NCBI GenBank assembly: GCA_964630375.1
Contig: CAZVRT010000002.1
Span: 41,706 to 105,705 of the forward strand
Direction of reading: 5' to 3'
Source of the DNA: an uncultured Candidatus Saccharibacteria bacterium
GTDB lineage: Bacteria > Patescibacteriota > Minisyncoccia > Phycocordibacterales > JAACPR01
DNA length: 64,000 nt
This document shows positions 2,817 to 41,712 of the stretch, piece by piece. Each line of letters starts with the position of its first letter. The stretch's first letter is position 1. A program made the translations under genes and the position numbers. The notes below the pieces were generated by a model. It saw only the letters and a list, made by a program, of their open reading frames with translations. It had not been told where the DNA came from and made no database searches.

Positions 2817-3197
2817 GTGAAAAACTTTGATGAGTGGAATGAGGTTAAGAAAAAAACTGATAATGAAGAAAATAGATTATACACAATAAGAGAGATTTGG
2901 TGGTTTAGAATTGGTTTAAATATTGGCACTGAACAGAATGGTAATGGTAAGGAATATACTAGACCATGTTTAATAATTTGCGGATTTGGATTTCATGCTT
3001 GCATGATTGTTCCTTTAACGACTTCTCCGAAACAAAATAGATTTAGAATTAGAATAGGTTTAGTTGAAGAATTTGAAGCAAAAGCCAATATTTCTCAAAT
3101 AAAAGTTATCGACACAAAAAGATTAGTAAGAAAAGTTGGTTTTTTAGATAAAAAGATTTTTGATAATGTAATAAAAAACATCAAAGATTTACTTTGA
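2817..3197 (+). CDS. PemK/MazF-fold protein (toxin-like endoribonuclease fold), paralog 1; GTG start
   Basis: 'REIWWFRIGLNIGTEQNGNGKEYTRPCLII...VPLTTSP...IKVIDTKRL' matches the PemK/MazF signature 'GeiWwv.l.p..G.EQ.G..RPvlVv ... P.Ts ... q.r.iD..Rl'. No antitoxin ORF lies upstream. Confidence 0.5.
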   Translation: MKNFDEWNEVKKKTDNEENRLYTIREIWWFRIGLNIGTEQNGNGKEYTRPCLIICGFGFHACMIVPLTTSPKQNRFRIRIGLVEEFEAKANISQIKVIDTKRLVRKVGFLDKKIFDNVIKNIKDLL

Positions 3198-3344
3198 TGT
3201 TTTTTACATTTGCCTCATCTTTTAGATGTGGCGAGGCCGAAGCCAACTGTTCCTAAATTGTATATAAACAAAATACAAAAGTCAAATATGGAAATTTATC
3301 TTTTCTTTATCAAAACTTCATACTGCATTTTATATAATCCTAAA

Positions 3345-3746
3345 GTGAAAAACTTTGATGAGTGGAACAAAGAAAAACAAGAGATTCACAATACTCCTAC
3401 TAAAAAATTATTTATAAATCCACGAGAAATTTGGCTTACCAAAATGGGTCAAAATATCGGATTTGAAGAAAATGGAAAAGAGAATTTTTTAAGACCGGTT
3501 TTGGTAGTTAAAGTTGTCGGGAATATGTTTTTTACAGCAGCACTAACAACAGGAGGTAAAGATAATAAATTTTATCATAAAATAACTAAAATTAATTTAG
3601 AAAATCCAAAGTATATAGACTCTTCATACTTAATTCTTTCGCAGGTTAAAGTTATGGATAAAAAGCGTTTTTTCAAGAAAATAGGATTTGTAGAAAAAGA
3701 AGAATTTGAAGAGATAAAAACAAAACTCAGAGAACTGCTTCTCTGA
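3345..3746 (+). CDS. PemK/MazF-fold protein, paralog 2. The ORF-track start at 3210 is probably an over-extension, and a GTG at 3345 reproduces the 'MKNFDEWN' N-terminus of paralog 1.
   Basis: 'REIWLTKMGQNIGFEENGKENFLRPVLVV...' shows the same fold signature. A 23-nt stretch around the start, 'gtgaaaaactttgatgagtggaa', is identical to paralog 1 at the DNA level. A perfect 9-bp hairpin, 'ctcagagaa ctgc ttctctgag', overlaps the stop codon. Confidence 0.45.
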   Translation: MKNFDEWNKEKQEIHNTPTKKLFINPREIWLTKMGQNIGFEENGKENFLRPVLVVKVVGNMFFTAALTTGGKDNKFYHKITKINLENPKYIDSSYLILSQVKVMDKKRFFKKIGFVEKEEFEEIKTKLRELLL

Positions 3747-3880
3747 GTTTTGCTTCTTGTTTTGTCTCCTATTTCTAGGAGATGGATCCCGAAGGACATT
3801 TGTATCTACAAGTATATGCGAAATAAAATTTAAAGTCAACTTTAAAAAAGTTATCATTTCTTTATTAAAACTTTATAAAA

Positions 3881-4421
3881 TTAAAACTCAAATTCCTCCG
3901 ACAACTCATAAGCTAATTTGTATTTAGGGTCATTAGGCTCTCTTGTGTAACCCATCTCCCTCAAAACTTTAAACACAGGTATGTGTTTTGCAACGGTTTC
4001 ATCTTTATGAATATTGGTAGGAAATTTATTGTCTGTAAGCAAAACATGTATCAACTCATGTGTGAGTATTTCCATAAACTCATCGGGAGTATATCTGGAT
4101 CTCACAATCAACGGTGCGGACATGTCTCTGTCTGTGGCATTCACAATAAAAACATCAATTATATTTTTCTTAAATTCAAGACCTGTTATGTTGTGAATTT
4201 TTTCTAATGTCTCTGCCCCATTATTTTTAAAAGTTTTTTTTAAAGAGTTTTACTTTTTCTAAAACTTCTTCTGTGCTAGCAAAAATATGATTTGGATATT
4301 TTTTCAAAATATAATCCCTAAAAAATGGTTCCAGTAGTCGCCCGTGACGAATATTTATTTGTGGGTGGTTTTTCATGAATTTATAATTTTCATCATAAAA
4401 TAAAACAAATATAATTACCAC
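3881..4421 (-). pseudogene. Disrupted HExxH zinc-metallopeptidase-like gene, possibly DUF45/YgjP-like, split into two ORFs in different frames
   Basis: The downstream piece, 3881-4144, contains 'EILTHELIHVLL' (HExxH). The upstream piece, 4227-4421, sits in a different frame with an 80-nt gap. Together they would make roughly 180 aa. The family assignment is weak. Confidence 0.3.
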
Positions 4422-4760: not shown

Positions 4761-6135
4761 AAATATCCGCTGGTGCATTCATCATTAAATCTTTTCCGTC
4801 ACCTGTTTTTGCAAAAGCAATAGTTTCTCGAATGTTTGGCTCATTTTCAAGAATCATCATCAAGCGATCAAATCCCCAAGCGATTCCTCCATGTGGCGGA
4901 GCACCAAATTTCAAAGCTTCTAAAAAGTAACCAAAATTGTTTTCAATTCGAGCATCATCGTATCCCATTATTTCAAAAGTTTTTTTCAAAGCTTCAGCTT
5001 TGTTATTTCGAATACTTCCTCCACCAATTTCAAATCCGTTCAAAGTAATGTCATATTGTGAAGTTAAAATTTCTCCAATATTTTCTTTGCTCATAAATTG
5101 TTCAAAATGTGCATCTTTTGGTTTTGAAAATGGATTGTGTGTAAAAGTCCACTCACCAGTTCCATCAAAGTTTTCTTCTCCAGTTTTTTCAAACATTGGA
5201 AAATCTACAATCCACAAAAACGCCAAAAGGTTTGGGTCATTTTTATCTTCTCGAATATCAGGTCTATCACTATCATATTTCTCCATCGCTTCCTTATATG
5301 ACATCCTTGGAAAAGGAATTTGCTGAATTCTTTTTTCAGGGTAAAACTTTTGCACAATTTCAATTAAAAGTTTTTCATTTAATTGCATAACATCTTCTTC
5401 CGAAACAAAAGACATTTCGATATCAAGTTGAGTAAACTCAGGTTGTCTGTCGCCTCTTGTATCTTCATCTCTCATACAACGAGCAAATTGAAAATATTTT
5501 TCCAATCCTCCAACCATCAAAAGTTGTTTGTATTGTTGCGGAGATTGTGGAAGAGAATAAAATGTTCCTTTATAAATTCTACTTGGCACAACAAAAGATC
5601 GTGCACCCTCTGGAGTCGGTGCAGACAAAAGCGGAGTTTCAATTTCTGTGAAATTTTCATCTGCCAACAAATTTCGAATATGATTTTGAACCTTGAAACG
5701 ATTTACAATATTTTTCTTCAATCTATCATTTCGTAAATCAAGATATCGATATTTCAAGCGAATTGATTCATCAACAATTCTTGTATCACCATCCAAAGGA
5801 AACGGTGGTGTTAGAGATTCATTCAAAATATTTATATACAAAATTTCTAGCTCAATGTTTCCATTCAAAATTCCTTCTTTGATATTTCTTTCAGGTCGCG
5901 GATTTATTTTCCCTGTTACCTCAACAACAAATTCTTCTCGAAGAATTTTTCCAGTTTCCATCGCTTCGCTTCCAGGCAAAATAACTCCTTGAACAATTCC
6001 TGTTACATCACGAAAATCCAAGAAAATCATTTTTCCTTGATCTCGACGAACATTAACCCAACCTTTAATAACAACTTCTTCTCCTACTTTTTGAGCTAAG
6101 TCTTTTATATACACTCTATTATTGCCGTTATTCAT
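4726..6135 (-). CDS. aspS: Aspartyl-tRNA synthetase, short archaeal/non-discriminating-type, lacking the GAD insertion
   Basis: It has an OB-fold anticodon-binding N-terminus, class II motifs 'FQFARCMRDEDTRGDRQPEFTQLDIEMSF' and 'GGGSIRNNKAEALKKTFE', and 'HGGIAWGFDRLMMIL'. Length is 469 aa. Confidence 0.9.
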   Translation of the reverse strand: MNNGNNRVYIKDLAQKVGEEVVIKGWVNVRRDQGKMIFLDFRDVTGIVQGVILPGSEAMETGKILREEFVVEVTGKINPRPERNIKEGILNGNIELEILYINILNESLTPPFPLDGDTRIVDESIRLKYRYLDLRNDRLKKNIVNRFKVQNHIRNLLADENFTEIETPLLSAPTPEGARSFVVPSRIYKGTFYSLPQSPQQYKQLLMVGGLEKYFQFARCMRDEDTRGDRQPEFTQLDIEMSFVSEEDVMQLNEKLLIEIVQKFYPEKRIQQIPFPRMSYKEAMEKYDSDRPDIREDKNDPNLLAFLWIVDFPMFEKTGEENFDGTGEWTFTHNPFSKPKDAHFEQFMSKENIGEILTSQYDITLNGFEIGGGSIRNNKAEALKKTFEIMGYDDARIENNFGYFLEALKFGAPPHGGIAWGFDRLMMILENEPNIRETIAFAKTGDGKDLMMNAPADISKKQKGELGLK

Positions 6136-7192
6136 TGTTATGTTTATACACTAAAACCAGCTCTAAAGGAAGTTGAGGCACTGCGCTTCTTCCAACCATG
6201 TCGTGAGCTTTTAGAAGTTCCAGCAAAACTTCAGAATTGATTTTTGTTTGTTTATTGTCAGAAATTTCTGTTATAAATTTCATGTCTTCTTCTGAAAAAA
6301 CATCCGCAAATTGTTTTTTTCTAGAATCAGAAATTTTCATCAACATAATTGCACGAACCTTGCTCAAAACTAATTCCAAGAAAACTTTCATATCAAGATT
6401 TGCTTCGGCAGCTTTTGCCAAAGCATTCAAACCAACATCAATGTTTCCACCATCCAGTGCTTCAATATATTTATTTACCAAATCAGACTTTGGTGCACCT
6501 GTAACTTTTTCAACTTCTTCAACAGAAATTTTTTTGTCTTTTGAAGAGCTAATAACTTTTTGCAAAATTCCTTGTGCATCTCTAAAAGATCCGTCAGCAA
6601 GTAGACCCAACAAATCCGCCGCACTAGTTTCAAGAGAAAAACCTTCCGCTTCTGCGGTTTTTTCAATCATATTTTTCAGAATTTTCTGATTTGGTTTTTT
6701 GAAAGTATAAGTCTGACAACGAGAAATTATTGTTTCAGGAATTTTTTCAGGTTCGGTAGTAGCTAAAATAAAAATAACATGCGAAGGCGGTTCTTCTAGA
6801 GTTTTCAGCAAAGCATTGAAAGCTGACTTCGAAAGCATGTGGACTTCGTCCAAAATATAAACTTTGTATTTAGAATCAAAAGGTTGTGTATATACAGATT
6901 CGTTCAATGCGCGAATTTCATCAACTCCGTTATTTGAAGCAGCATCAATTTCGTACAAGTCGTCATTTGATGTGCCAATTTCTCTGGCAAAAATTCTTGC
7001 AATAGATGTTTTTCCAATTCCGCGAGTTCCTGCAAAAAGATATGCATGAGAAATATTTCCAAGTTTTATTGATTCAGAAAGAACAGAAGTTACATGTTCT
7101 TGTCCTAAAACATCTTTGAATTTTTGTGGTCGATATTTTGTATAAAGCGCAACTCGATCGTGTTGTATATTTGAATCTGATTTCTTCGACAT
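6128..7192 (-). CDS. dnaX: DNA polymerase III subunit gamma/tau. The true start is probably the ATG at 7192 ('MSKKSDSNIQHDRVALYTKYRPQKF'), and the ORF-track extension to 7309 runs through a terminator hairpin.
   Basis: 'YRPQKFKDVLGQEHV', Walker A 'GTRGIGKTSIARIFA', a DExx box 'VYILDEVHMLS' and sensor 'SRCQ'. Confidence 0.85.
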   Translation of the reverse strand: MSKKSDSNIQHDRVALYTKYRPQKFKDVLGQEHVTSVLSESIKLGNISHAYLFAGTRGIGKTSIARIFAREIGTSNDDLYEIDAASNNGVDEIRALNESVYTQPFDSKYKVYILDEVHMLSKSAFNALLKTLEEPPSHVIFILATTEPEKIPETIISRCQTYTFKKPNQKILKNMIEKTAEAEGFSLETSAADLLGLLADGSFRDAQGILQKVISSSKDKKISVEEVEKVTGAPKSDLVNKYIEALDGGNIDVGLNALAKAAEANLDMKVFLELVLSKVRAIMLMKISDSRKKQFADVFSEEDMKFITEISDNKQTKINSEVLLELLKAHDMVGRSAVPQLPLELVLVYKHNNE

Positions 7193-7254: not shown

Positions 7255-7364
7255 AGATGTCAGATATATGTCCTCCTTGATCATACGATCTCCTTTCTAT
7301 GCCTGCCATGCAGGCTGTTTCAAACTGATTCTGACATATATAAATACATTGTCAATATTATTTA

Positions 7365-7633
7365 AAAAAAGAAAAAGGCCCAGTGCACTTTCGTTGAGTA
7401 TTTATTTCCGAAGAAACAAACTAAACGACGCGACTGGACCAGGAAGTATAAACCTGAAAAGTTTTCCGTATAGGAAGGTTCATTGACTTCAATGTGCACG
7501 ACTTTTGGTCGTATCATACAGCTCTTGGGCTGTACAGTGCCGAGCTCAGCTCGGGATTCTTCAATTCTGGTCTGAAGAAACCTTCTCTGTACCTCGACTG
7601 GGTCAAGGTACAAAGGCTCAATGCGAACCCTCA
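7365..7633 (-). ncRNA. Candidate structured ncRNA of about 270 nt, identity unresolved
   Basis: A 550-nt divergent intergenic region with GC of about 45% (background is about 34%). The minus strand has TTGACA (7667-7662), a 16-nt spacer and TATATT (7645-7640), and a GGCC plus U-run end near 7365-7385. It contains a UUCG-capped stem 'guuucUUCGgaaau'. The only ORFs inside (7362-7685 minus, 7505-7714 plus) are low-complexity and unconvincing. Confidence 0.35.
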
Positions 7634-7743
7634 TTTGTAAATATACACCTTCCCTGTTTTTTGTCAACAGTTCCATTTTTATCACTTTTTAATATTTTAT
7701 TTAAATCAATTTAATACTATTTTTTGTAATCTTATAAAACTTT

Positions 7744-8115
7744 ATGAATAATTTTGATAACTGGAACCAAATTAAAAAAGAAATTGGAAAAAGAGATATT
7801 TTAATCCCAAAAGAATCTGAAATTTGGATTATAAACTTGGGATACAATATCGGTTTTGAAATGTATGGTAAAAATAAAAATTATGTAAGACTAGCTTTAA
7901 TTTTAAAATCTTTTGGAGAAAATGGTTGTTGGATTATTCCATTAACCTCAAAATTCAAAAAACATTTCTTCATTCACTCAGTATCCAAAAATAGTTTTGC
8001 AAATATTTTACAATTTAAATTTATAGACAACAGAAGATGTTTAAGAAAAATTAGTAATTGTAATAAAAAAGAGTTTAATGAAATAAAGTGCAAATTCATA
8101 AAACTACTCTCCTAA
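7744..8115 (+). CDS. PemK/MazF-fold protein, paralog 3
   Basis: 'MNNFDNWNQIKK...SEIWIINLGYNIGFEMYGKNKNYVRLALIL...IPLTSK' shares the N-terminal 'NFDxWN' extension with paralogs 1 and 2. There is no upstream antitoxin ORF. Confidence 0.45.
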   Translation: MNNFDNWNQIKKEIGKRDILIPKESEIWIINLGYNIGFEMYGKNKNYVRLALILKSFGENGCWIIPLTSKFKKHFFIHSVSKNSFANILQFKFIDNRRCLRKISNCNKKEFNEIKCKFIKLLS

Positions 8116-8117
8116 AT

Positions 8118-8146
8118 AAAAAGACCTCTTTGTAGAGGTCTTTTTA
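8118..8146. terminator. Bidirectional rho-independent terminator
   Basis: aaaa-AGACCTCT-ttgt-AGAGGTCT-tttt, placed between the 3' ends of convergent genes (a plus-strand gene ending at 8115 and dus ending at 8225). Confidence 0.55.
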
Positions 8147-8224
8147 TAATATATACGGAGCTAAAGCTCCTCGGCCGGTTATCAAAACCTATAATAAATA
8201 ATTGTATTAAATCATTTTGAAAAG

Positions 8225-9217
8225 TCAAATCTTTAAAAACTTCTCAACAATCTCCTCAACTTCCTCCAAATCTTTTGCATCCATTAGTTGAATGCGTAAT
8301 TCTTTTGCCCCATCAAAACCTTCAACGTAAGCTTTATAGTGCTTCTTCATAACAGAAAAATTTTTGTGGGGTAAAATTTCTAAAAAAAGTTTTGTATGTT
8401 CAATCATCACTCGCAATCTTTCTTCAACACTAATATCATAATCACGAATAATTTCCGGATTGAAAAACCAAGGATTTCCAAAAATTCCACGACCAACCAT
8501 TACACCATCAACACCAGTTTCTTCTGAAACTTGTTTTGCCTTTTCCAAAGAATCAATGTCTCCGTTTCCAAGTAAAATTGTTTCAGGAGAAATTTTATCT
8601 CGTAGCTCCACAGCTTTTTTTGCAAGTTCCCAATGTGCAGGAACTTTTGACATTTCTTGCCGAGTTCTCCAATGAATTGTTAAAGCCGCCGGTTTTGTAG
8701 AAAGAATTTCTGAAATCCAGTTTTCCATTTCTTCGATTTTGTTGTAGCCGATGCGAGTTTTTACCGAGATTGGTAGGAGCGGCGCGCCTTGGCGCGCCGC
8801 TCCTACCAAACTTTTCGCCAACTCCGGATTTTTAATCAACGCCGCCCCACTCTTTTGTTTTTCAACACCTCGATCAGGGCAACCCATGTTTATATCAATT
8901 CCATCAAATCCCAAATCTTGCACCAACTTCGCAGCACCCATCATCATCTCAGGCTTTCCAGAAAAAAGTTGTGCCACAATTGGTCTTTCCTCTTCTGTAT
9001 ATTCCAAATCTTTTAACAACTTTTGCTTTGAAGAAAACCCTGAATCATCAAAATTATCATCAGGTGCCATTATCAAACCATCAGCAGAAACAAATTCTGT
9101 CCAAGTAACATCCGGTTTTCCATATTTTGCAAACAAACGACGAAAAGGCGCATCTGTAACATCCGCCATCGGTGCCAAAACAATTATTGGTTTTTTCAAC
9201 TTCTGCCAAAAATTCAT
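8225..9217 (-). CDS. dus: tRNA-dihydrouridine synthase
   Basis: 'VLAPMADVTDAPFR', 'GFDGIDINMGCP' and 'ISVKTRIGY' are TIM-barrel Dus signatures. A 40-nt perfect GC-rich palindrome sits inside the CDS at 8770-8809. Confidence 0.85.
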   Translation of the reverse strand: MNFWQKLKKPIIVLAPMADVTDAPFRRLFAKYGKPDVTWTEFVSADGLIMAPDDNFDDSGFSSKQKLLKDLEYTEEERPIVAQLFSGKPEMMMGAAKLVQDLGFDGIDINMGCPDRGVEKQKSGAALIKNPELAKSLVGAARQGAPLLPISVKTRIGYNKIEEMENWISEILSTKPAALTIHWRTRQEMSKVPAHWELAKKAVELRDKISPETILLGNGDIDSLEKAKQVSEETGVDGVMVGRGIFGNPWFFNPEIIRDYDISVEERLRVMIEHTKLFLEILPHKNFSVMKKHYKAYVEGFDGAKELRIQLMDAKDLEEVEEIVEKFLKI

Positions 9218-30079: not shown

Positions 30080-30808
30080 TTAAAACTGATTGTTAAATCT
30101 TAAATCTCCAGATTGAAGAAGACGAATATCATCGATTCCATAAAGCATCATCGCAATTCTGTCCCAGCCAAAAGCAAAAGCATATCCTTGATATTCTCGT
30201 GGGTTCACTCCTCCTCTTTCCAAAACTTTTGGATGAAGCATTCCTGCTCCTAAAACTTCAATCCAACCAGACTGCTTGCAAACAGAACAACCTTTTCCTT
30301 CACATTTGAAACATGACATATCTACTTCAACTCCCGGCTCCACGAAAGGAAAGTATCCAGGTCGCAATCTTGTCGTTGTATTTTCTCCAAAAAGTTTTTT
30401 GAAAATTCTTTCAATCGTATATTTCATGTGGCCAAGATTTAAATCTTTTCCAATTGCAGCACATTCAAATTGATGAAACACTGCTTCGTGAGTCGCGTCT
30501 GTTGTTTCATTTCGATAAACTTTTCCGAAATATAAAATCTTTAAAGGCACCCCTCGCTCTCGCGGACCCTTCACTTGCCCAGCTGATGTTTGTGTTCGCG
30601 CAAGCATTCCCTGACGATTTTTCAACCAAAAAGTATCTTGTTCATCTCGAGCGGGATGAGAATCAGGAACATTCAAAGCATCGAAGTTGAAAAATTCTGT
30701 CTCAATCTCAGGAATTTGGAAAATATCAAAACCCATCTCGTCAAAGACTTCAATAACTTGATGCATTATTTGATTCAGAGGATGAATGTGTCCTTTCTGT
30801 TCGCTCAT
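30080..30808 (-). CDS. pheS: Phenylalanyl-tRNA synthetase alpha subunit: catalytic core only, with no N-terminal coiled-coil arm
   Basis: Class II motifs 'FGKVYRNETTDATHEAVFHQFE' and 'GWIEVLGAGMLHP...GFAFGWDRIAMMLYGI', plus a CxxC...CxxC insert 'CFKCEGKGCSVCK'. Length is 242 aa. Confidence 0.85.
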   Translation of the reverse strand: MSEQKGHIHPLNQIMHQVIEVFDEMGFDIFQIPEIETEFFNFDALNVPDSHPARDEQDTFWLKNRQGMLARTQTSAGQVKGPRERGVPLKILYFGKVYRNETTDATHEAVFHQFECAAIGKDLNLGHMKYTIERIFKKLFGENTTTRLRPGYFPFVEPGVEVDMSCFKCEGKGCSVCKQSGWIEVLGAGMLHPKVLERGGVNPREYQGYAFAFGWDRIAMMLYGIDDIRLLQSGDLRFNNQF

Positions 30809-30823
30809 ATTTTTAGAAGTTTA

Positions 30824-31825
30824 TCAAATTTCAGCGCGATATAACTCTTGACCGTCTTTTATAAATATAGTGTTACCTCGCAACTTAAATTCAGGCTTTT
30901 CGCCTTTAAATATAGTTTGAAGGTTTTGTCTTGATCTATCGTCAGCCTCTACAGCAAAAATGTGATTTTGTGTAGCAACAATAAAAGCGTCATCTCTGTT
31001 TGGATAAAAATCAAATTGCGAAATATCCGTATTCAAAGAAACTTTTATATTATTTTTACAATCTCTAATATTACAGAAGAAAAACGGAGTCGCCTTTACT
31101 TCACCTGTCCAATAAACTTGAATATCACCAGATTCCAACCAAGCAATCATCTTTCCAGATTCTCTTAATTGTTTTTTGTTTTCAATATCTTTGATATTTA
31201 ATTTATTTAAATAATCAGGAATTATTATTTTTGAAGAAGTTGCAGGTTTTGTTGAAGTTGTTTTTGTCGAAGTCGCAGAAGAAGTTGAAACAATAATTTC
31301 TTCTTTAAATACAACTAGGTTTCTATCCGGAGTTGTAGTTGAGGTAAAAATAGCCAAAGTGTCTTCGTATTCTTTATTCAAAGTTCTAGTTGTTGTAGAT
31401 TTTTGATCTTTGTCTAAAGTTTCTGTTTCAGTAAATTGTTCAATCTTTTTGAAAGGAATTTCAATCGGCAACATCAAAATTCTAGCCTCTGTCACGATAT
31501 TCGGATATACATTTAATTCTTTATACCAAGGCAAGTATCCGTCTTTCTCAACTCGAATTTGATATGACTGATTTGATTTCAGATTTTGAACCAAAATATT
31601 TCTCAAAAGCAAACCTCCTGATTCTGCAAATTCTTCGTCAACAAACAATCTGGTATCAGATAAATCAGAGTGAATAAAAAATCCACCAGTCTTTTCAAAA
31701 GTTAAGTTCTCCCAATCCAATCTATAACCAGAAGAGTACGCCAAAAGAAACGGAATAGAAATTATAAAAATTAAAAATAAAAATCCCAATGAAAATGATC
31801 TTCGTTTTTTTGATAATGGTTTCAT
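30824..31825 (-). CDS. Membrane-anchored PEGA-domain protein with a Thr/Ser-rich linker
   Basis: N-terminal TM 'FLFLIFIISIPFLLAY', a PEGA-like 'YQIRVEKDGYLPWYKELNV' and 'TSSATSTKTTSTKPATSS'. Confidence 0.4.
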   Translation of the reverse strand: MKPLSKKRRSFSLGFLFLIFIISIPFLLAYSSGYRLDWENLTFEKTGGFFIHSDLSDTRLFVDEEFAESGGLLLRNILVQNLKSNQSYQIRVEKDGYLPWYKELNVYPNIVTEARILMLPIEIPFKKIEQFTETETLDKDQKSTTTRTLNKEYEDTLAIFTSTTTPDRNLVVFKEEIIVSTSSATSTKTTSTKPATSSKIIIPDYLNKLNIKDIENKKQLRESGKMIAWLESGDIQVYWTGEVKATPFFFCNIRDCKNNIKVSLNTDISQFDFYPNRDDAFIVATQNHIFAVEADDRSRQNLQTIFKGEKPEFKLRGNTIFIKDGQELYRAEI

Positions 31826-40842: not shown

Positions 40843-41712
40843 TTATTTTATAAAGTTAAATAATTTTAATCTTTCAGTAACAACTTCTTTCATTGCATCT
40901 ACTGTTGGTTGCATTATTTTGTATGGTGCAATTTCTTTTTTATTTTCCTTTAAAGATTTCTTCAATGCTTCAACAAATGCTAATCGAATTTCTGTATTGA
41001 TGTGAATAGTTGAAATTCCGGCTTTGATTGCCTCTTGAAAGTCTTCATCAGCAATCCCAGAACCTCCGTGCAAAACAAGCGGCACACCACAGGCTTTTCT
41101 AATGTCAGCGATTCTTTGAATGTTTAATTTTGGATTTTTCTTTCCTTTCAACATTCCATGCATATTTCCAACTGCTGGAGCAAGCAAATCAACTCCCGTT
41201 TTTTCCACGAATTCTTTTGCTTCTTCTGGAGTTGTCAGATATTTTTCATCAGTTGCAACACCTTCAGGGATTTTATCTAGAATTTTTGAAGACTGACCAA
41301 TGTTTCCTAATTCAGCTTCAACTAAAACATCTCTTCCACAATTTCTGGCATATAAAACACATTCTTTTGTGGCTTTTATATTTTCTTCATAAGAAAGTTT
41401 TACTCCGTCGAAAATTACAGCATCAAAGCCGGCATCAATAGCTTTTTTTACTCCTTCAACAGTATAAGTGTGATCTGCATTTAAAAAAACCGGTTGGTTG
41501 TAGTCTTCGCGATAAGTGCGGATAAGCGCCGCCGCTTCGTGTACCCCCACGAAGTCGCGCTCTCCCTCGGAAACTCCTATTACTATAGGAAGTTTCAGTT
41601 CCCTCGCGGCGGCGCACACCGCATGTAATGCCTCTAAGTTTGAAATATTAAAATGTCCGATTGCAACTCCTTTTCTTTCTGCATCTGCAACATAATCTCG
41701 TAAATTATTCAT
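40843..41712 (-). CDS. fba: Fructose-bisphosphate aldolase class II
   Basis: 'HFNISNLE', 'LNADHTYT' and 'LVLHGGSG'. A GC-rich patch lies at 41510-41640. Confidence 0.85.
   Translation of the reverse strand: MNNLRDYVADAERKGVAIGHFNISNLEALHAVCAAARELKLPIVIGVSEGERDFVGVHEAAALIRTYREDYNQPVFLNADHTYTVEGVKKAIDAGFDAVIFDGVKLSYEENIKATKECVLYARNCGRDVLVEAELGNIGQSSKILDKIPEGVATDEKYLTTPEEAKEFVEKTGVDLLAPAVGNMHGMLKGKKNPKLNIQRIADIRKACGVPLVLHGGSGIADEDFQEAIKAGISTIHINTEIRLAFVEALKKSLKENKKEIAPYKIMQPTVDAMKEVVTERLKLFNFIK

Follow-up and report, generated by a model that had tools for sequence, protein, structure and literature searches.

Convergent small RNA genes as candidate antitoxins of N-terminally extended MazF-fold toxins in a Patescibacteria genome

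Among type I toxin-antitoxin (TA) loci, par (fst/RNA II) of pAD1, txpA/RatA and bsrG/SR4 encode an antitoxin RNA that is transcribed convergently with the toxin gene and overlaps it at the 3' end. In the type III systems ToxIN, CptIN and TenpIN, which are often anti-phage and mobile, an endoribonuclease related to Kid and MazF is held by a structured RNA, and toxins of this type, such as ToxN, display a Kid/MazF-like fold. Here we analyse a stretch of 64,000 nucleotides (hereafter the window) from an uncultured Candidatus Saccharibacteria bacterium (contig CAZVRT010000002.1 of assembly GCA_964630375.1, forward strand, positions 41,706 to 105,705), which is AT-rich (GC about 0.33) and contains housekeeping genes typical of a reduced genome. 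Three genes in the window, designated P1, P2 and P3, encode MazF-fold proteins, and at the 3' end of each lies a small RNA (sRNA) gene on the opposite strand. We consider it probable that P1, P2 and P3 are each the toxin half of a toxin/RNA-antitoxin module in which the convergent sRNA serves as the antitoxin.

P1 (2817-3197, plus strand; GTG start, 126 amino acids (aa)) and P2 (3345-3746, plus strand; GTG start, 133 aa), the latter representing a second orthogroup, are MazF/PemK-fold toxin genes arranged in tandem, while P3 (7744-8115, plus strand; ATG start, 123 aa) encodes a divergent MazF-fold paralog in which RL/RM replaces RP. NCBI places the start of P2 at ATG 3288 (152 aa); the GTG start is supported by the length of the P2 orthologs, which comprise 134-138 aa, and the 152-aa ATG open reading frame (ORF) and a 178-aa TTG ORF are upstream over-extensions. 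All three proteins exceed the gathering score of PF02452 (PemK_toxin; 23.1 bits), with P1 scoring 47.7, P2 43.5 and P3 24.8 bits, and the match to phrog_9567, described as a 'MazF-like growth inhibitor', extends over the N-terminal extension as well. An AlphaFold2 (AF2) model of P1 built with 143 homologs (predicted local distance difference test (pLDDT) score of 95.9) displays a barrel to which a helix, residues 4-15, has been added N-terminally. The top 50 Protein Data Bank (PDB) matches returned by Foldseek for this model were all MazF-type toxins (MazF, MoxT and YdcE; template modelling (TM) scores of 0.6-0.8), the best being MazF-mt1, MoxT, YdcE, Staphylococcus aureus MazF and Escherichia coli MazF, with TM scores of about 0.7. 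Solved relatives were revealed by the fold search alone, as a phmmer search against the PDB gave nothing meaningful. Alignment of P1 with Bacillus subtilis MazF by hhalign placed R49-P50 on R25-P26 and T68 on T48, R25 and T48 being the catalytic pair of the Bacillus enzyme. P3 retains the Arg and Thr at the catalytic positions, with Leu or Met in place of the Pro. P1-P3 are thus bona fide members of the MazF family, and on the evidence of sequence and fold they are predicted to be toxic endoribonucleases.

The N-terminal extension is a conserved property of these proteins. Across 143 family members K11, N35, E39, R49, Q94 and R102 are invariant, and F4, W7, N8, R25, E26, W28, P50 and T68 are at least 90% conserved; the FxxWNxxK motif (FDEWNxxKK in the N-terminal helix of P1) is therefore as constrained as the active site. 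Residues 1-22 of P1 have no counterpart in B. subtilis MazF, the hhalign alignment beginning at residue 23, and in the AF2 model the helix is confidently packed (pLDDT >90) and is not a flexible tail. The family is large, with 1639 cluster representatives at 50% identity recovered at E<=1e-3 and 662 at E<=1e-10. The strict N-terminal motif pattern was present in 106 of the 150 best cluster representatives, and the N-extended subfamily comprises at least several hundred such clusters. Relatives of P1 are labelled Patescibacteria, Paceibacterota, Kaiserbacteria and similar, and 264 family loci were confirmed by tblastn among the genomes of GTDB species. Our results bear out much of an initial annotation of the window, made from the sequence alone, which had described three ORFs with the PemK/MazF fold (all pass the PF02452 cut-off), a tandem arrangement of P1 and P2 with GTG starts (consistent with the ORF listing and the lengths of the P2 orthologs) and an N-terminal extension common to the paralogs (evident from its conservation in the 143 members, from hhalign and from the AF2 helix).

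Type II MazEF and PemIK operons are defined by an adjacent, co-transcribed antitoxin gene of the AbrB, RHH or Phd type, and no such gene accompanies P1, P2 or P3. The 77 nt upstream of P1 contain no plus-strand ORF of at least 20 aa, the 147 nt upstream of P2 hold one unconvincing 20-aa ORF (3194-3256) that overlaps the P1 stop codon, and the ORFs in the 434 nt upstream of P3 are all without family matches. None of the 26 small intergenic ORFs of the window matched an antitoxin-type Pfam family, the matches obtained being to ribosomal proteins L31 and L33 and to a few weak, non-antitoxin families, and a PADLOC scan for defence systems returned no match. In eleven loci with P1- or P2-type orthologs the neighbours all differ (among them polA, rplJ/rplL-fusA, map-truB, NYN and hicB). 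A further 80 loci supplied 1913 ORFs of at least 30 aa situated no more than 1.2 kb from the toxin gene, and clustering of these revealed no protein family that flanks the toxin gene consistently. The lack of an upstream antitoxin gene, already proposed in the initial annotation, was thus confirmed by the listing of small ORFs down to 20 aa, the Pfam scan of the window and the clustering of neighbours across 80 loci. The accompanying idea that these are solo toxins, either domesticated or immunity-independent, is superseded, as the copies carry a conserved convergent sRNA gene at their 3' end and hence beyond the reach of an upstream search for small ORFs. In one locus, on a Nitratiruptor plasmid (L013), a 62-aa ORF (2955-3143) that appears RHH/CopG-like by eye (KTIRVEDDLWDKFKKIA) lies between the MazF-like gene with its two hairpins and rep, just upstream of the latter; the other loci lack a conserved equivalent, and the product may regulate the plasmid or act locally as a protein antitoxin.

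The largest cluster of neighbouring 'ORFs' consisted of 40-aa pseudo-ORFs located immediately 3' of the toxin gene on both strands, and therefore represents conserved non-coding sequence. On the plus strand the element reads CGGCTTTTC..ACATTCT, hairpin 1, YGAG, hairpin 2 (GGC-CGAA-GCC), AACTGT, approximately 10 nt, TATA.., approximately 17 nt and AAGTCAA, and a core of 20 nt recurs in 55 of the 80 related loci as well as behind P1. The minus-strand reading describes an entire small gene, in which a promoter of the form TTGACT-N16-18-TAnnnT is followed by a conserved ACAG where the sRNA starts. Within the sRNA, hairpin A, GGC(UUCG)GCC, is nearest the 5' end; hairpin B consists of 5-7 bp closed by a GNRA loop (GCAA, GAAA or GUAA) and is followed by an A-rich linker; and hairpin C, followed by UUUUCUU, constitutes a rho-independent terminator at the toxin stop codon, its 3' arm being antisense, in P1 and P2, to the last approximately eight toxin codons. 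On the plus strand the same hairpin C and a U-run are able to terminate the toxin mRNA. Because hairpin C can act on both strands, the toxin mRNA and the sRNA, whose gene is about 80-90 nt long, converge on a bidirectional terminator that they have in common.

In the window sRNA-P1 occupies 3165-3252 on the minus strand, with the GGC(UUCG)GCC hairpin, a second hairpin and the bidirectional terminator across the P1 stop codon, and its promoter (3257-3285, minus strand) is TTGACT-N17-TACAAT. The corresponding gene at P2, sRNA-P2 (3711-3804, minus strand), contains UCC(UUCG)GGA, a hairpin with a GAAA loop and a terminator across the P2 stop codon, and is preceded by TTGACT-N17-TATACT (3811-3839, minus strand); an element of this type also follows the P2 orthologs in five other loci (L007-L011). 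The third gene, sRNA-P3 (8113-8194, minus strand), is a variant with GGUU..AACC and GGAGC..GCUCC hairpins and a terminator (8120-8146) that abuts the P3 stop codon, and its promoter (8201-8228, minus strand) is TTGACT-N16-TACAAT. In a promoter scan each of the three promoters scored 10/12 matches. Hairpin A varies in sequence with the subtype: it is GGC/GCC in P1-type loci, UCC/GGA both in loci of the P2 type and in those of Campylobacterota, and GCC/GGC in a subset of divergent loci. At P3, the upstream region and start of the gene (7700-7764) and the promoter and 5' end of sRNA-P3 (8175-8221) form imperfect inverted repeats (74-75%), so that the 5' end of this sRNA resembles, rather than complements, the start of the P3 mRNA; these repeats may be a product of chance in AT-rich DNA.

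Several lines of evidence indicate that the element is a transcription unit encoding a structured RNA. A TAnnnT box lies 4-10 nt upstream of ACAG in 72 of 74 loci, and a -10 box together with a -35 box (TTGnnn, or at least 4/6 matches to TTGACA) at a spacing of 16-18 nt occurs in 69 of the 74, compared with 4.9% of shuffled sequences; TTGACT or TTGACA itself is present in 43/74. When the three-hairpin structure was evaluated on an alignment of 62 sequences (A4) against 500 shuffles, 91.8% of the paired cells were able to pair, versus 84.0% after shuffling, and sliding the partners reduced pairing to 40-62%. Double changes were observed at 18 of the 23 pairs, with 112 compensatory cells (32.4 in the shuffled alignments), and neither this count nor the paired fraction was equalled in any of the 500 shuffles. 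An independent prediction by RNAalifold contained hairpins A and C together with a portion of hairpin B. With respect to strand, the UUCG and GNRA loops are readable on the minus strand only, and the ratio of G-U to A-C pairs, 98:42 overall and 89:29 in hairpin C, favours the same strand.

A covariance model (CM) built from alignment A4, R1, detected sRNA-P1 (73.3 bits, E 1.6e-14) and sRNA-P2 (39.5 bits, E 5.8e-7) in the window, where it found no further credible match and did not detect sRNA-P3. R1 also matched the 3' end of the toxin gene in all the independent P1/P2-type loci (L001-L011), which were outside the training set, and, at E<=0.001, 74 of the 80 related loci and six second copies, most of these 80 loci having also supplied the training alignment. 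In the six loci that R1 missed, a UUCG hairpin and a second hairpin are visible by eye, and the three of them that were inspected further (L085, L087 and L093), like most of the divergent paralogs in arrays, have a -10 box or a promoter of the TTGACT type ahead of the hairpin. The predicted folds are stable, at -30.2 kcal/mol (z -6.6) for sRNA-P1, -38.1 kcal/mol (z -8.0) for sRNA-P2 and -28.5 kcal/mol (z -5.7) for sRNA-P3. The variant sRNA-P3 is retained in four orthologous loci (alignment A5), with compensatory changes that convert GGAGC/GCUCC to GGAGU/ACUCC; the loop of its hairpin A' is GCAA or GUAA in two of the four, and its -35 and -10 boxes are conserved in the three loci that cover the promoter, the fourth (L098) ending short. 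At the gathering threshold Rfam 15 returned only tRNAs in the window, and at E<=5 its matches between 2700 and 8400 were weak and all well below gathering scores.

The sRNA accompanies nearly every toxin copy examined, the exceptions being a weak paralog of doubtful status (L061) and a distant Firmicutes homolog. The latter, on a Lactobacillus salivarius plasmid (27% identity), has no sRNA obvious by eye, and the pairing may therefore not extend to all Firmicutes members. Orphan sRNAs, conversely, do occur. In L001 such an element (4831-4917), adjoining a hicB-like gene and an IS200-type Y1 transposase, carries decayed MazF C-terminal codons, and in L010/L011 another (7082-7174) follows a relB-yafQ pair and likewise carries decayed MazF C-terminal codons, with the TGA stop mutated to GGA; a second MazF gene was apparently displaced here by the relB-yafQ pair. 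Such an asymmetry is in keeping with an antitoxin function, because an antitoxin can outlive its toxin but the reverse does not hold. On the complete chromosome of the alphaproteobacterium Bradyrhizobium sp. DASA03120 (L023, 675315-681689) two P1-type MazF copies, of 58% and 51% identity, are each paired with a Patescibacteria-type sRNA that scores 103 (the best CM score overall) and 57.5 bits, respectively, which looks like cross-phylum transfer of toxin and sRNA as a unit. Two to four diverged toxin copies lie within 3 kb of each other in 12 of the 80 loci, on the same strand in all but one, and the P1-P2 pair of the window is a two-cassette array of this tandem type.

A counterpart of the module for which transcription has been reported is present in Campylobacter. 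When plasmids and phages were searched by tblastn with P2, members of the family turned up on plasmids of Campylobacter, Helicobacter and Nitratiruptor, and CJIE4 prophages were also found to carry them. The copy on pVir of Campylobacter jejuni 81-176 (record positions 30634-31038, beginning MQNEDLKFDEWNEVKK) displays 35.8% identity over 79% of P2 and has the same FDEWNEVKK N-terminus. It corresponds to CJJ81176_pVir0047 in the differential RNA sequencing (dRNA-seq) study of Dugar et al. 2013 (PMC3656092, Tables S5 and S12), in which a minus-strand transcription start site at 31119 stands far above the other pVir entries shown, with a read value of 16164. Table S12 of that study lists CJpv3, a 77-nt sRNA on the minus strand (31119->31043) between pVir0047 and pVir0048, as 'Detected on Northern blot'. 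CJpv3 ends 5 nt past the stop codon, and thus has the same position and orientation as the predicted sRNA. A pair of hairpins directly adjoins the stop codon at the pVir, Helicobacter suis, Nitratiruptor and CJIE4 loci. In addition, two further publications (PMC7826846, PMC10470494), which cite Shen et al. 2016 (Mol Microbiol 101:909), describe an antisense sRNA, CjrA, that acts as antitoxin in cjrA/cjpT, a type I system of the 81-176 plasmid pVir.

In the mechanism that we favour, a MazF-family endoribonuclease with an additional N-terminal helix would be countered by an sRNA that this organism would make from a separate sigma-70-type promoter. The sRNA would be transcribed on the opposite strand in the direction of the toxin gene, and its rho-independent terminator would double as the terminator of the toxin mRNA. 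The primary route to neutralization would be of the type I kind, the cis-antisense sRNA annealing to the toxin mRNA at its 3' end, and the conserved 5' hairpins of the sRNA may very possibly contact the toxin protein as well. Cis-antisense action is favoured because complementarity is guaranteed at the shared terminator and because of the pVir precedent; indeed, an opposite-strand RNA gene that overlaps the toxin transcript, the hallmark of a type I system, is present at the sequence level, as judged by promoter, terminator, fold, covariation and CM. It should be emphasized, however, that several observations weigh against this explanation. Should both transcripts end at the shared hairpin, they would overlap in cis by only about 35-40 nt, and sRNA-P3 and CJpv3 barely reach the toxin coding sequence (CDS). 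The strongest conservation is in the non-overlapping 5' half of the sRNA, which a pure antisense mechanism leaves unexplained. Trans-pairing between cognate sRNA and mRNA was no better than between non-cognate partners (p=0.56, 0.32), and a second test (-33.2 versus -32.7 kcal/mol) identified no consistent site in the mRNA 5' region or CDS. Expression has been shown directly for C. jejuni CJpv3 and is predicted, like toxicity, in this organism. Since R1 misses CJpv3, the link to Campylobacter rests on position and architecture, and cjpT is likely to be pVir0047, as cjrA is likely to be CJpv3.

Conservation outside the overlap, the lack of cognate-specific pairing and the family-specific N-terminal helix argue for contact between RNA and protein, in addition to or instead of antisense pairing. 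It could thus be proposed that the main mechanism is type III-like, with the sRNA binding the MazF-like protein directly and the antisense overlap being a by-product of the common terminator; the 5' ACA-containing leader and the UUCG hairpin could, for example, dock on the N-terminal helix or in the RNA groove, and the sRNA would inhibit the enzyme as a pseudo-substrate. Across 46 P1-type loci the 5' leader and hairpin A are 88% identical and are the most conserved stretch of the locus, compared with 79% at codon positions 1+2, 41% at third positions and 69% for the proteins; the sequence of hairpin A varies with toxin subtype; and the residues of the N-terminal helix (F4, W7, N8 and K11) are conserved like catalytic residues in a confidently packed segment, with no trans-pairing signal between sRNA and toxin mRNA to set beside them. 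The tandem array of RNA repeats upstream of the toxin and in the same operon that typifies type III loci is, however, absent near all copies, the RNA being single-copy, downstream and antisense. Furthermore, the sole reported precedent, on pVir, is classed as type I, and binding of the sRNA to the toxin is putative. We regard a mainly type III-like mechanism as possible but distinctly less probable than an RNA antitoxin acting at least in part by antisense pairing. A more speculative proposal, to which we would attach a similarly small share of confidence, is that the N-extended MazF subfamily as a whole constitutes an RNA-controlled toxin class, in which the convergent sRNA would neutralize the toxin via its N-terminal helix or groove as a single-copy, trans-strand counterpart of type III antitoxins, and in which the tandem arrays of the candidate phyla radiation (CPR) and the plasmid and prophage copies would be diversifying abortive-infection or addiction modules.

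Explanations in which the sRNA is not an antitoxin at all fare less well. The 3' element might consist of a shared terminator and an unrelated convergent transcript, or might be the structured end, a recombination or transposition site, of a mobile cassette that carries small toxin genes from place to place, the MazF-like proteins being controlled otherwise or being mild, specific RNases. The modules do occupy many unrelated contexts, extra copies of the element lie by hicB and the IS200-type Y1 transposase (L001) and after relB-yafQ (L010), and a repeated boundary sequence (at 2767, 3295 and 3847) flanks the cassettes in the window. A precisely placed promoter (69/74 loci) and a canonical terminator, however, define a transcription unit, and the extra copies are module remnants, because they carry the decayed MazF C-terminal codons. 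The element forms three separate hairpins and not the single attC-like or insertion sequence (IS)-end hairpin pair, no 5' boundary is conserved across the loci, and no integrase or transposase neighbour recurs among the ORFs within 1.2 kb, the Y1 transposase being found in one locus only. Integron attC sites, which form one long imperfect hairpin with R/L boxes, and IS200-IS605 ends, with their left- and right-end hairpins, are accompanied by an integrase or a Y1 transposase; both were specifically considered, and rejected because the three hairpins are independent and belong to a unit that has its own promoter and terminator (attC boxes were compared by eye). Such a non-antitoxin origin of the element appears improbable. 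An even slighter chance attaches to the view that the N-terminal extension is an antitoxin in cis, making each protein a fused TA, or that a protein antitoxin is encoded elsewhere in the genome. The extension of approximately 22 residues is conserved and contains Trp, a residue found in the C-terminal tails of MazE-type antitoxins, and the portion of the genome inspected comprises 64 kb only. Nevertheless, the extension is modelled as a packed helix and not as a flexible tail, there is no antitoxin-type family in the window and no conserved protein neighbour in the 80 loci, and the conserved sRNA would be left unexplained. An sRNA that acts as the antitoxin thus accounts best for these data.

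The history of the three copies can be read from their sequences. P1, P2 and P3 share only 38% protein identity with one another, and this, with the common fold and the common extension, upholds the view that they are paralogs. Orthologs of P1 reach 65% identity (more than 170 clusters) and those of P2 up to 87% in other genomes. A protein search found P3 orthologs of 75-80% identity in three relatives, in one related genome in synteny between dnaX and dus, and a pattern scan of metagenome contigs found no close relatives of P3; P3 is an older, vertically inherited copy. The initial annotation had pointed to an identical 23-nt stretch around the starts of P1 and P2 as a sign of recent duplication or gene conversion. 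The identity is exact (2817-2839 and 3345-3367, encoding KNFDEWN), but recent duplication of P1 and P2 is rejected in view of their 38% identity and of the closer orthologs in other genomes. Given the identical peptide, identical codons would be expected with a probability of about 0.17 under the codon usage of the window, and thus the 23-mer reflects a conserved peptide and a shared promoter/start module, with local conversion at most, rather than a young duplication. Nucleotide identity between P1 and P2 is 58% overall, reaching 67-83% only at -30 to +30 around the start, and the 23-nt match sits within a 98-nt direct repeat (73% identical) that covers the upstream region, a putative promoter, and start of P1 (2767-2864, plus strand) and of P2 (3295-3392, plus strand). 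In each copy of the repeat a TATAAT (2805-2810 and 3333-3338) precedes the GTG by 6 nt, a layout also seen in L042 and L059, and the P1 and P2 mRNAs may be leaderless and GTG-initiated, or the true start may lie elsewhere. A third, partial repeat copy (3847-3877), which no gene follows, lies past the sRNA-P2 promoter. Some 30 nt of boundary sequence, TTT(C)TTTATCAAAA(C/T)TT.ATA, recur at 2767-2797, 3292-3322 and 3847-3877, with 87% identity between the second and the last copy; a third cassette may formerly have belonged to the array, or this sequence may be where cassettes are duplicated.

Other features of the region deserve mention. Directly upstream of P1 lies a gene encoding a SET-domain protein (2191-2739; PF00856, E 7.9e-15), a domain uncommon in bacteria, which probably starts at an internal ATG and not at the listed TTG. 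On the minus strand an 87-aa ORF with a HELIH motif and a weak SprT-like match (3881-4144; E 0.028) and a 64-aa ORF upstream of it (4227-4421) are in different frames and are thus compatible with a single frameshifted metalloprotease-like gene. In the initial annotation the SET-domain gene and the disrupted HExxH gene were taken to suggest a small accessory islet, which this region may be. The segment of about 430 nt between dnaX and P3 (7310-7743) contains no credible ORF, and a part of it (approximately 7338-7425) is conserved in syntenic relatives. Its minus strand displays, at 7667-7640, a promoter close to the consensus (TTGACA-16-TATATT), hairpins at 7615-7585 and, at about 7440-7355, a long hairpin with a U-run (fold z -5.0); Rfam gave no match at E<=5. 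The segment may be an unannotated RNA gene in a position, upstream of dnaX, that is often occupied by ffs.

Databases tag hundreds of genes of this kind as 'type II toxin-antitoxin system PemK/MazF family toxin', although they are without a type II antitoxin. If the sRNA is indeed the antitoxin, a large MazF subfamily would have to be reclassified as RNA-controlled, and the sRNA would represent a new structured-RNA family, absent from Rfam, with enough covariation for modelling. The modules would also provide a testable account of how genome-reduced Patescibacteria tolerate several 'orphan' RNase toxins, and CJpv3, the Campylobacter sRNA detected by Northern blot, would join a family that spans several phyla. 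Should Shen et al. 2016 have characterized pVir0047/CJpv3, the CPR loci would be new and far more numerous members with a better-defined RNA.

The MazF/PemK/Kid toxins of type II systems, such as B. subtilis MazF (YdcE/EndoA) and Mycobacterium tuberculosis MazF-mt1, have the same fold and the Arg and Thr found in P1, whereas P1-P3 carry the FxxWNxxK helix of approximately 22 residues, and a convergent sRNA gene replaces the MazE/PemI-type neighbour. Similar to the modules described here, par, txpA/RatA and bsrG/SR4 produce a convergent RNA with a 3' overlap or a bidirectional terminator. The toxins of these type I loci, however, are small membrane peptides, while here the toxin is a 125-aa protein with an RNase fold; moreover, the sRNAs of the window are most conserved outside the overlap, and no complementarity to the 5' region of the mRNA was found. 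Type III RNAs are tandem repeats placed ahead of the toxin gene, within its operon but separated from it by a terminator, and the toxin processes them. The RNA of the window, in contrast, is encoded by a single-copy gene that lies downstream of the toxin gene, faces it from the other strand and has a promoter to itself. The closest parallel is pVir0047/CJpv3. CJpv3 differs from the sRNAs of the window in that it lacks a UUCG hairpin, does not overlap the CDS and is missed by the CPR-derived R1; the pVir locus nevertheless resembles the P1-P3 modules in combining a homologous toxin with a convergent sRNA that is transcribed from just downstream and ends beside the stop codon.

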